DNA of 58,949 nucleotides from Escherichia phage ECO95 1-6-1. The translations under genes and the position numbers were made by a program. Position 1 is the stretch's first letter, and the number at the start of each line of letters is the position of its first letter. The notes beneath the pieces were generated by a model, which made no database searches, was not told the origin of the DNA, and worked only from the letters and a program-made list of their open reading frames with translations. This document shows positions 23,806-25,257 of the stretch, one piece after another. The DNA lies in sequence record OR845257; one strand, given 5' to 3'.

Positions 23806-24009
23806 CTATTTCCAGCCGCATAGCCGTTCGCCGATTTCATCGTGGGTGGCGATCTGCCGTGCGGTTTCATCTGTCAGCACGTCTTCCTCGCCGATGTAGA
23901 TGGCGCGCGCGACAGAACAGAAAGACGGCGCAGGGTTAATCCTTTCGACGCATCCACTTACGGCGAAGCAGATCGTTAGCGCCACCATCAGGGAGTTTAT
24001 TGATTTCAT
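23806..24009 (-). CDS. o-spanin (outer-membrane lipoprotein, Rz1-like)
   Basis: MKSINSLMVALTICFAVSGC signal peptide with lipobox; embedded out of frame in the 3-prime part of the i-spanin gene. Confidence 0.5.
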   Translation of the reverse strand: MKSINSLMVALTICFAVSGCVERINPAPSFCSVARAIYIGEEDVLTDETARQIATHDEIGERLCGWK

Positions 24010-24190
24010 TATGCACCTCGGCCACATTTTTGTCCGCGTTTGCCTGTTCCCGCAACGTGTCATTGTTCTGGTTATTAATCTGATCCTGTTTGCCCTTCGT
24101 GCGTCCTGCCCGCCAGACGCCGAAGAGGGCCACAACGAAAACGAGCGCCGCAAGGACGCCCGTCTTAATCCGGGCGAGTAGCCCCGTCAT
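23936..24190 (-). CDS. i-spanin (Rz-like)
   Basis: N-terminal TM helix then charged/coiled region; ATGA overlap with the upstream gene; overlaps the o-spanin ORF. Confidence 0.5.
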   Translation of the reverse strand: MTGLLARIKTGVLAALVFVVALFGVWRAGRTKGKQDQINNQNNDTLREQANADKNVAEVHNEINKLPDGGANDLLRRKWMRRKD

Positions 24191-24900
24191 GCAGCGGCTC
24201 CGGCCCGATGTTTCCGGTACGCGACCCATCCCATGTACAGGCCGACCGCGATTGTGGCCGCGCCGAATGCGATGCGTACCCAATCACCGGAAGAAATATC
24301 GCCGTGGGCGCTGTCCATCGCAGCCTTGACGGGCTGTACCATGTCAACCAGTTGCGCCGCGCCGAGTCCTGCCACGCTTGTCGCGGCCACGGTGGTACGG
24401 TTAACAGGCTTGGCCGCCTTAACGATGCCCGCCCGGCGCAGACCTTCCTCGATCACTTCGTCCGAGTACCACGTATTCGCGTTGCTGTACGGCGTCAGGC
24501 CGAACGCTTCCGGGTTCCCGTTTTCGTGGCGGATGATTCCTTCCACCAGACCGCGCATGGTGTCGTAGTCGTGGAGGTTCAGCGTTTCGCTATTCGGGTC
24601 AACGGCCAGAACGGCGGCAACCTGTTTAGCGTAGGCCGATACGTTGTTCTCAACGGCGGGTGCCCACCGCTCGATAACTTCTCGCACCGAGTCGATTTTG
24701 CTACCGTCATTCGCTTTGCGCTTGTCGTAGTAGGTGGTCAGAGTGACGGCAATGGCGCGGATGCCGGATGCCGGGTCTTTGAACTGCGCGAAGCGGCTGT
24801 CCGTCGCCTCGTTACGCGGGATCAGCCCTTGCCACGGCGACCCCCACTCGATGTTGCCCGGGTTGTTATTGCGAATCCCGCGCGGCTTCTGTTTAGCCAT
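24187..24900 (-). CDS. putative endolysin / peptidoglycan hydrolase-like protein with C-terminal TM helix
   Basis: position between holin-like and spanin genes; GIRNNNPGNIEW N-terminal motif; catalytic family not identified. Confidence 0.35.
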   Translation of the reverse strand: MAKQKPRGIRNNNPGNIEWGSPWQGLIPRNEATDSRFAQFKDPASGIRAIAVTLTTYYDKRKANDGSKIDSVREVIERWAPAVENNVSAYAKQVAAVLAVDPNSETLNLHDYDTMRGLVEGIIRHENGNPEAFGLTPYSNANTWYSDEVIEEGLRRAGIVKAAKPVNRTTVAATSVAGLGAAQLVDMVQPVKAAMDSAHGDISSGDWVRIAFGAATIAVGLYMGWVAYRKHRAGAAA

Positions 24901-24903
24901 CGG

Positions 24904-25257
24904 TTATTTCCTCATCATTTGGGAAGATAGGGTATCCACGCTTTGTTTCAGGTCGCGCATGTCGGCGCGAAGGTCTGAACGAAGGGCGGAGTTTTGCGAG
25001 ACGGTTTCGGCCCGGAGAACCGTGAACGCCGCGTCAGTGGAGTCCTGACGTTTCTCGACGTTGGTAAGCCGGGTGTCCGTCTGCGTGTTCTGGTTTGATA
25101 GGTCGGCGAAGCGGTTGTTGACGTACAGTACCGCCGCCACCAGCATCGAAGCCATCGTCAGAATCGTGGGGAGATTGACAGACAAGTCTAACTTGATGCC
25201 GCCGGAGTTATCCCCCGGCCGTTCCCGTTCCATTTCGCTCATTGGGTGCTTCCTCAC
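24904..25257 (-). CDS. putative holin (single TM)
   Basis: 117 aa with one hydrophobic helix; first gene of the lysis cassette. Confidence 0.35.
   Translation of the reverse strand: MRKHPMSEMERERPGDNSGGIKLDLSVNLPTILTMASMLVAAVLYVNNRFADLSNQNTQTDTRLTNVEKRQDSTDAAFTVLRAETVSQNSALRSDLRADMRDLKQSVDTLSSQMMRK

Follow-up and report, generated by a model that had tools for sequence, protein, structure and literature searches.

Phage lysins whose hydrophobic sequence lies at the C-terminus have been described before, and the closest to the protein discussed here is M4Lys (ORF_38 of phage BSPM4, KY620117), which alone lyses E. coli 20-60 min after induction and no longer does so when the distal transmembrane domain (TMD), or merely the last 13 residues, are removed (PMC7143992). 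The endolysin of Hafnia phage Enc34 (ORF39, PDB 7Q47) has a two-segment C-terminal TMD and stands in the same cassette order, its truncated catalytic domain being the only form that was studied (PMC8943055); LysAP of Acidovorax phage AP1 likewise requires its C-terminal TMD for lysis, lyses E. coli alone and is preceded by a 111-amino-acid (aa), single-TMD "holin" (PMC8879335). The cassette considered here was first flagged, as potentially a new class of holin and endolysin, in the genome note on phage Siskin (PMC6498227). It occupies positions 23806-25257, on the minus strand, of the stretch that was analysed, 58,949 nucleotides (nt) of Escherichia phage ECO95 1-6-1 (record OR845257; hereafter the window), and comprises the late lysis genes of a Chi-like siphophage of Salmonella (Chivirus). 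Both the cassette and its membrane-anchored lysin are already known, a near-identical protein having been published and a homologue crystallised; an earlier note, made from the DNA letters of the window, had called a C-terminal anchor unusual for a lysin, and unusual it is, although already in print. What remains of interest is the mechanism by which the lysin is delivered and the portability of its tail module, which is apparently unreported. Taken as a whole, the explanation argued below, in which the identity of the cassette is joined to delivery of the lysin by a membrane hairpin, is regarded as probable.

The cassette and its Enc34-type lysin

Four co-oriented lysis genes follow one another on the minus strand, their products being a single-TMD protein of 112 aa, the lysin (237 aa), an i-spanin (84 aa) and an o-spanin lipoprotein (67 aa). 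The earlier note had proposed this order (membrane protein, lysin with a C-terminal membrane segment, i-spanin, o-spanin), an order borne out by the curated Siskin annotation and by the Chi spanin families (PMC6139136), and all four open reading frames (ORFs) are present on the minus strand at the stated positions. Over its 1.7 kb the region shares 99.9% identity with Salmonella phages BPS1 and Siskin, and about 90 more Chi-like siphophages (Chivirus, Casjensviridae) match it at 95% or above; the four genes match PHROG families at E values of 7e-58, 6e-83, 4e-23 and 8e-24 in gene order; because the region is conserved across about 100 Chivirus genomes and the genes have these matches, the four ORFs are not due to chance. 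The window, which at 58.9 kb has roughly the length of a complete genome of such a phage, is oriented opposite to the Siskin record at this locus, and its late genes and lysis cassette thus lie on the minus strand. The features are as follows.

25264-25284, minus strand: intrinsic terminator with an 8-bp GC-rich stem and a T6 run, annotated as a terminator in Siskin
25249-25255, minus strand: ribosome-binding site (RBS) GAGGAAG of the first lysis gene, 6 nt before the ATG, read from the sequence
24904-25242, minus strand: 112-aa membrane protein, putative holin or lysis regulator (TMD at about residues 20-38; PHROG 7686)
24187-24900, minus strand: 237-aa endolysin of the Enc34/M4Lys type, stop codon included (235/237 identical to M4Lys; PHROG 873)
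24421-24900, minus strand: catalytic domain of the lysin, residues 1-160, of CDD PHA02564 type (high-confidence structure model; homology to the Enc34 domain)
24523-24525, minus strand: codon of the proposed catalytic Glu126 of the lysin, aligned to Enc34 Glu131
24190-24429, minus strand: C-terminal membrane module of the lysin, residues 158-237, defined by hydropathy, conservation, charge and a module-only hidden Markov model (HMM)
24331-24396, minus strand: weak Ala/Gly-rich segment H1 of the module (hydropathy)
24217-24276, minus strand: TM2 helix of the module (hydropathy)
23936-24190, minus strand: i-spanin, 84 aa (PHROG 1026 at 4e-23; N-terminal TMD at residues 8-26)
23806-24009, minus strand: o-spanin lipoprotein, 67 aa (PHROG 1275 at 8e-24; lipobox VSGC at 23950-23961)

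The 237-aa protein is almost certainly a phage endolysin of the Enc34/M4Lys type, cutting the glycan strand of peptidoglycan. It has the same length as M4Lys and differs from it at two positions (T106M and V219I), while the 112-aa protein, the i-spanin and the o-spanin are each 100% identical to their BSPM4 counterparts; functionally, nothing sets the window lysin apart from M4Lys. The GIRNNNPGNI motif pointed out in the earlier note is located at residues 8-17. Its PHROG match, PHROG 873 (E 6e-83), carries the label "endolysin", and residues 5-162 match the Enc34 endolysin (7q47_A) at E 2.1e-74 in a phmmer search of the PDB. The AlphaFold model has a predicted local distance difference test score (pLDDT) above 90 over residues 1-160 and superposes on 7q47_B with a Foldseek TM score of 0.97 and a root-mean-square deviation of 1.2 Å; the catalytic domains are about 70% identical, Enc34 having in addition a 5-residue insertion after residue 81. 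Glu131 has been proposed as the catalytic residue of the Enc34 enzyme, with Tyr95 and Trp79 positioning the substrate (PMC8943055); E126, Y90 and W79 of the window lysin align with these residues and are invariant in 61 aligned homologues.

The same note had found the catalytic family not evident, and at the level of Pfam (no match even at E up to 1) and NCBIfam (no match) this holds; it does not hold at the level of structure, the Enc34 catalytic domain being all-helical, similar to the lysozyme alpha-lobe, distantly related to GH73 and GH23, and muralytic (PMC8943055). Membership of GH73 or GH23 does not appear at the sequence level in Pfam, and the kinship rests on the structural superposition of Enc34.

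As regards activity, purified M4Lys(1-206) clears purified peptidoglycan and is active on many Gram-negative species (PMC7143992); peptidoglycan degradation and TMD-dependent lysis, shown for M4Lys, are to be expected of the near-identical window lysin, and a lack of muralytic activity, which the earlier note had named as fatal to its proposal, is contradicted by activity published for a protein with only 2 of 237 residues different. Analysis of the M4Lys products by liquid chromatography-mass spectrometry is described in the text of the paper as showing a glucosaminidase but in a legend as showing a muramidase, an endopeptidase activity being also possible (PMC7143992); text and legend thus disagree on the bond specificity.

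The same catalytic domain is used in other settings. In Seuratvirus (phage Seurat gp86, about 52% identity) it forms by itself a soluble 145-aa endolysin which, unlike the window lysin, has no membrane module and is followed by a canonical LydA-type holin (PF16083). It also forms the N-terminus of ejection or internal-virion proteins and of tape-measure proteins (PHROGs 7182, 2276 and 992), and sequence comparison reveals it (E about 1e-15) in N-terminal position in internal-core/ejection proteins of podophages, such as E1004 Gp29 (PDB 9vvp chains L/W) and gp16 of Kayfunavirus (K1F-like). These occurrences, together with the CDD name of the domain, "virion protein", lend something to the idea that the window lysin is a virion-associated hydrolase which opens the wall for DNA ejection, lysis being the task of another gene. 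We consider this highly improbable: the gene lies between a membrane protein and a spanin pair, with its stop codon overlapping the i-spanin start, its membrane module is common to other lysins, and expression of M4Lys lyses cells (PMC7143992). Nor does a different gene emerge as the endolysin, the other outcome that the earlier note had allowed for; in the ten tail-region proteins, Pfam finds no family of lysozymes, transglycosylases or peptidases (ORFs of the early region were not scanned one by one), and the Siskin annotation names one endolysin only in the first 50 kb of the genome.

The C-terminal membrane module

Hydropathy confines the hydrophobic segments of the lysin to its C-terminal 70 residues. 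The single hydrophobic helix reported before was correctly placed at the C-terminus, but two segments are found there, not one: H1, weak and Ala/Gly-rich, at about residues 169-188 (Kyte-Doolittle 1.33), and TM2, a clear transmembrane helix at about 209-228 (1.55), which is followed by the basic sequence RKHR. The first 160 residues are free of hydrophobic segments and the N-terminus, MAKQKPRGIRNNNPG, is polar, so that an N-terminal signal-arrest-release (SAR) domain is absent. The module is therefore read as a basic linker, H1, an acidic loop containing S204-G205 of an SGDW motif, TM2 and the basic tail. More than 120 full-length homologues, at 50-100% identity, retain this tail; over 120 of them the mean net charge is +2.8 in the linker before H1 (with a mean of 4.9 Lys/Arg), -1.4 in H1, -1.6 in the loop and +2.8 in the C-terminal tail. 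Q183 in H1 and S204 and G205 in the loop are invariant in the module homologues, W208 is conserved, and small residues are spaced along TM2 (G213, G220, G224). Among the full-length homologues, at about 55% identity, are those of Cronobacter and Salmonella contigs of about 75-115 kb (P0054, P0058, P0062-P0064, P0070, P0074, P0083 and P0094), some of these contigs having the size of phage-plasmids at about 110 kb, and a related one carries the name "HCM2.0049c", which suggests that SSU5/pHCM2-like phage-plasmids may use the same type of lysin.

The distribution of the tail was followed with a module-only profile built from residues 158-237 and searched against 1.84 billion representative proteins, which gave 44 matches at E up to 1e-3. 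Beyond lysins of the Enc34 type and their fragments, these comprise nine GH24 (Phage_lysozyme) proteins, one SleB-like Hydrolase_2 protein (E 2e-8), one Peptidase_M15_4 protein (E 6e-7) and one GH19-like protein (E 7.5e-7). In all the full-length lysins with other catalytic domains (P0146, P0150, P0152 and P0155-P0164) the match lies at the extreme C-terminus, and they have in common the motif L-S/T-S-G-D/E/Q-W-V/I-R-I; short fragments aside, the off-target matches are two, one to a protein made of repeats and one to a ParB-domain gene call that looks chimeric. A reciprocal profile, built from the 12 non-Enc34 lysins only, hits residues 161-233 of the window lysin (45.7 bits, E 6e-7 at library size), its sole match among the 1141 ORF segments of the window. 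When the module alignment was used in a word-indexed search, the matches were limited to four fragments belonging to the same family.

From these matches, phages appear to have fused the module to at least five unrelated wall-degrading domains, namely those of the Enc34, GH24, GH19-like, SleB-like Hydrolase_2 and M15_4 types. That the tail, of about 75 residues, is a discrete portable lysis-targeting module, and not a generic anchor, is a proposal to which we give an even chance. In the Enc34 paper, the arrangement was described as limited to Chivirus relatives (PMC8943055), and the literature that was searched contained no paper connecting Chi/Enc34, AP1 and the other module-bearing lysins. 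LysAP itself is a possible member of the family: its tail is colinear with that of the window lysin (hhalign probability 73%, weak by HMM at 19 bits), whereas its GH24 catalytic domain is unrelated, its holin HolAP shows no similarity to the 112-aa protein and no spanins have been reported for AP1. An origin of the Chi lysin as a holin-endolysin fusion by way of the Seurat holin was considered, in view of a tblastn match in PLYYY01 that seemingly spans 98% of the lysin but reads through a stop codon, and was rejected; BLASTP of the tail against that holin, which is of the LydA type, was empty.

The genes that accompany the module vary. The adjoining membrane proteins include a LydA-type holin (contig L009), an 85-aa protein (L011) and proteins of 111 and 98 aa (L021); since module-bearing lysins thus adjoin different membrane proteins in different phages, the module apparently works with interchangeable holins, as is usual in lysis cassettes. 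Spanins of the Chi type accompany it in L009 and in L016, where a GH24 lysin with the module is followed by an o-spanin 39% identical to that of the window; they are not evident in the gene lists of L019 and L021, and a general rule that the module always travels with Chi-type spanins was rejected. The prophage-like cassette at 1411-3583 of L009 (present also in L010) consists of the LydA-type holin, a P2 LysB/LysC-like TMD protein and lipoprotein, a module-bearing Enc34-type lysin and a Chi-type i-/o-spanin pair, and hence appears to hold two spanin pairs. A different genomic setting is seen in the T7-like contig L019 (1501-2205), where a module-bearing M15_4 peptidase lies just after the endonuclease I gene and an Amidase_2 (T7 lysozyme-like) gene follows about 750 bp downstream.

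Delivery of the lysin

How an enzyme with such a tail reaches the cell wall is best approached from the charge pattern of the module. Because the net charges run +, -, -, + from linker to tail, the positive-inside rule would leave both ends of the lysin in the cytoplasm; TM2 ends nine residues before the C-terminus, and insertion must consequently be post-translational, with the catalytic domain already made. M13 procoat is known to insert without SecA, and the mechanism that we tentatively prefer, although its chance falls just short of even, is that the module, once translation is complete, would enter the membrane as a hairpin in the manner of procoat. The basic linker would stay inside, the weak H1 would enter the membrane, the acidic loop would face out, TM2 would return and the basic tail would remain inside, all without need for SecA. 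The folded catalytic domain would thereby be kept at the inner membrane, on its cytoplasmic side, and would meet the wall only once the membrane had been breached or depolarised. During infection, the upstream 112-aa protein would set the timing, in the role of a holin or pinholin; when the lysin is overexpressed, the membrane-perturbing activity of the module itself could suffice, and the module might thus supply a holin-like activity of its own. Two helices with both ends inside had also been predicted by the authors of the Siskin (PMC6498227) and Enc34 (PMC8943055) reports.

A number of points weigh against this picture. The hairpin topology is a prediction from a sequence pattern, and H1 is only marginally hydrophobic; the invariant Gln lies within it and is followed three positions on, in most homologues, by an acidic residue (D186 here). 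In the AlphaFold model of the full-length lysin pLDDT falls below 50 at residues 169-205 and H1 is not modelled as one helix. To our knowledge, no mechanism is described that moves a tethered cytoplasmic domain across the membrane. M4Lys (PMC7143992) and LysAP (PMC8879335) nevertheless lyse cells without any holin, and their catalytic domains must therefore reach the wall somehow. Moreover, ORF_37 of BSPM4, the counterpart of the 112-aa protein, shows no toxicity, can be dispensed with and slightly delays lysis, which is atypical for a holin (PMC7143992), and in AVP3 and L013 no candidate gene lies directly upstream of the lysin.

The holin-free lysis speaks for another topology, in which TM2 alone would span the membrane, N-out/C-in, so that the catalytic domain would be exported and held inactive on the periplasmic face, as if by a SAR domain moved to the C-terminus; the 112-aa protein would then be a pinholin, and depolarisation would release or activate the enzyme. 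The orientation was predicted by the M4Lys authors, with Phobius and Phyre2 and without a pinholin step (PMC7143992), and the full pinholin model was set out by the LysAP authors (PMC8879335). The resemblance to the SAR endolysins (P1 Lyz, R21 of phage 21) is real, inasmuch as these are membrane-associated, have a Gly/Ala-rich hydrophobic segment and lyse without a holin when overexpressed; TM2 is likewise rich in Gly, Ala and Thr, co-expression of HolAP enhanced lysis by LysAP, and the basic tail is required for lysis by M4Lys. In the SAR endolysins, however, the SAR domain is N-terminal, export is co-translational and through Sec, and the catalytic domain is periplasmic, whereas the window lysin has its hydrophobic part at the C-terminus and no N-terminal signal; no export pathway is known for a folded N-terminal domain of about 200 residues whose signal leaves the ribosome last. 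Furthermore, the conserved basic linker (about 5 Lys/Arg) would have to be periplasmic, contrary to the positive-inside rule. A comparison of the published azide data does not help this model, being ambiguous: 10 mM azide delayed lysis by both M4Lys and LysAP, and the two groups drew opposite conclusions; SecA-free, procoat-like insertion would fit the M4Lys result. On balance, the exported topology is considered rather unlikely.

The 112-aa protein bears on a further reading. It has a single TMD, as the earlier note had recognised, followed by a helical C-terminal part of about 70 aa, and is thus small, with one TMD, and encoded next to an endolysin, as a holin would be; the "holin-like" label given to it in that note is unproven, the identical ORF_37 having minimal effect on growth and being dispensable for M4Lys lysis (PMC7143992). 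It matches no holin family in Pfam or NCBIfam and shows no similarity to HolAP by BLASTP, and a relationship with HolAP was rejected on that ground. The label of its PHROG match is "Rz-like spanin"; a role as a LysB-like i-spanin was likewise rejected (TIGR03495 at E 0.013, far under the cut-off, and no BLASTP alignment to the LysB-like ORF of L009). Homologues are found in Chi-like phages only (148 records), where the gene strictly keeps its place as the first of the cassette, and its names in GenBank conflict (holin, Rz-like spanin, lysis protein B, putative endolysin 2, putative single-stranded DNA binding protein). The protein begins M-S-E-M, a possible dual-start motif comparable to that of Enc34 ORF38. 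Three Lys/Arg flank its TMD on the N-terminal side and one on the C-terminal side, which weakly favours N-in/C-out, opposite to the orientation in the Siskin note. A putative role as a holin, pinholin or regulator is suggested by gene position.

With a non-toxic neighbour that slightly delays lysis and belongs to no curated holin family, it may be asked whether the lysin is a self-sufficient holin-endolysin fusion, in which the module would oligomerise and make the lesion itself, leaving to the 112-aa protein the part of an antiholin-like timing regulator or some other role. M4Lys alone suffices for lysis, and the module is conserved well beyond the needs of a plain anchor, including the spacing of small residues in TM2; some phages have no adjacent gene upstream, and in L016 only a 38-aa ORF precedes the lysin. 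Yet lysis has in every case been recorded in E. coli under overexpression from a T7 promoter, and the M4Lys tail alone (158-237), although bacteriostatic (PMC7143992), which counts in favour of this reading, is neither lytic nor lethal; other module-bearing lysins adjoin a recognisable LydA-type holin, and Chi-like phages strictly keep the 112-aa gene in its place. Self-sufficiency is accordingly held to be improbable, more so than the exported topology, and the hairpin described above is retained as the preferred mechanism.

Spanins, flanking signals and significance

The 84-aa and 67-aa proteins, from their sequences, are an overlapped (P2-like) i-spanin/o-spanin pair, predicted to disrupt the outer membrane last. 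The N-terminal TMD of the i-spanin, which the earlier note had seen, has a Kyte-Doolittle value of 2.19 and is followed by a 58-aa polar periplasmic domain, the protein being free of Cys; the lipobox of the o-spanin, also noted, lies at residues 17-20 (VSG|C), with Val at +2 (that is, no Asp, as expected of a lipoprotein sorted to the outer membrane), and leaves a mature form of 48 aa with 3 Cys. The o-spanin gene had been described as embedded out of frame; out of frame it is, but not embedded. It starts at the ATG at 24009, inside the i-spanin gene and in the +1 frame, overlaps it by 74 nt and continues for 130 nt beyond the i-spanin stop, as far as 23806, which differs from the embedded architecture of lambda Rz/Rz1 (whose products are, moreover, much longer than these, the cysteine-free i-spanin being a further difference) and resembles the P2 LysB/LysC type, in which the gene of an o-spanin lipoprotein begins inside that of an i-spanin with an N-terminal TMD and extends beyond it in the +1 frame. 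Indeed, the census of spanins lists those of Chi and Enc34 as overlapped and defines Chi i- and o-spanin families (Kongari et al. 2018, PMC6139136). In the BSPM4 record (KY620117, 41016-41306) a wrong-strand ORF_39 lies in place of the i-spanin, which, although identical to that of the window, was left unannotated; as a result, spanins were never considered in the M4Lys paper. The same spurious ORF is present on the plus strand of the window at 23900-24181.

The genes of the cassette are tightly packed. Three nt separate the stop codon of the 112-aa gene from the lysin ATG at 24900, and the lysin stop and the i-spanin start share an ATGA overlap, the i-spanin beginning at the ATG at 24190 and not at the TTG at 24283. 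As for the first lysis gene, a mechanical ORF start, GTG at 25257, falls within the tail of the terminator; translation truly begins at the ATG at 25242, which has the RBS in front of it and gives 112 aa, in agreement with the Siskin and BSPM4 annotations. The terminator, a strong one, comes after a 709-aa tail-fibre-like gene, the last tail gene, and directly upstream of the cassette, so that it stands between that tail gene and the RBS at 25249-25255; the lysis genes must hence be expressed by read-through or from a separate start, and no convincing promoter was found in the vicinity. At the other end, the o-spanin gene and the convergent gene of a nucleoside 2-deoxyribosyltransferase (23344-23805, plus strand) end back to back (TAA|CTA, 23803-23808) with zero intergenic bases and no terminator detected between them. 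The lysis region of Chivirus also matched records labelled as Listeria and Staphylococcus phages, one of them (OR848973.1, Listeria phage LM 4-14-1, 2,930 bp) being 99.0% identical; such records are probably mislabelled or contaminant fragments.

Should the tail indeed be a discrete portable module, it would represent a general third route for endolysins, beside soluble enzymes released by a holin and enzymes exported through an N-terminal SAR domain or signal peptide; and if the sharing of the module among unrelated lysins holds, the puzzle of delivery would concern a general transferable device and not one group of phages, a device which could also serve to build self-delivering lysis cassettes.

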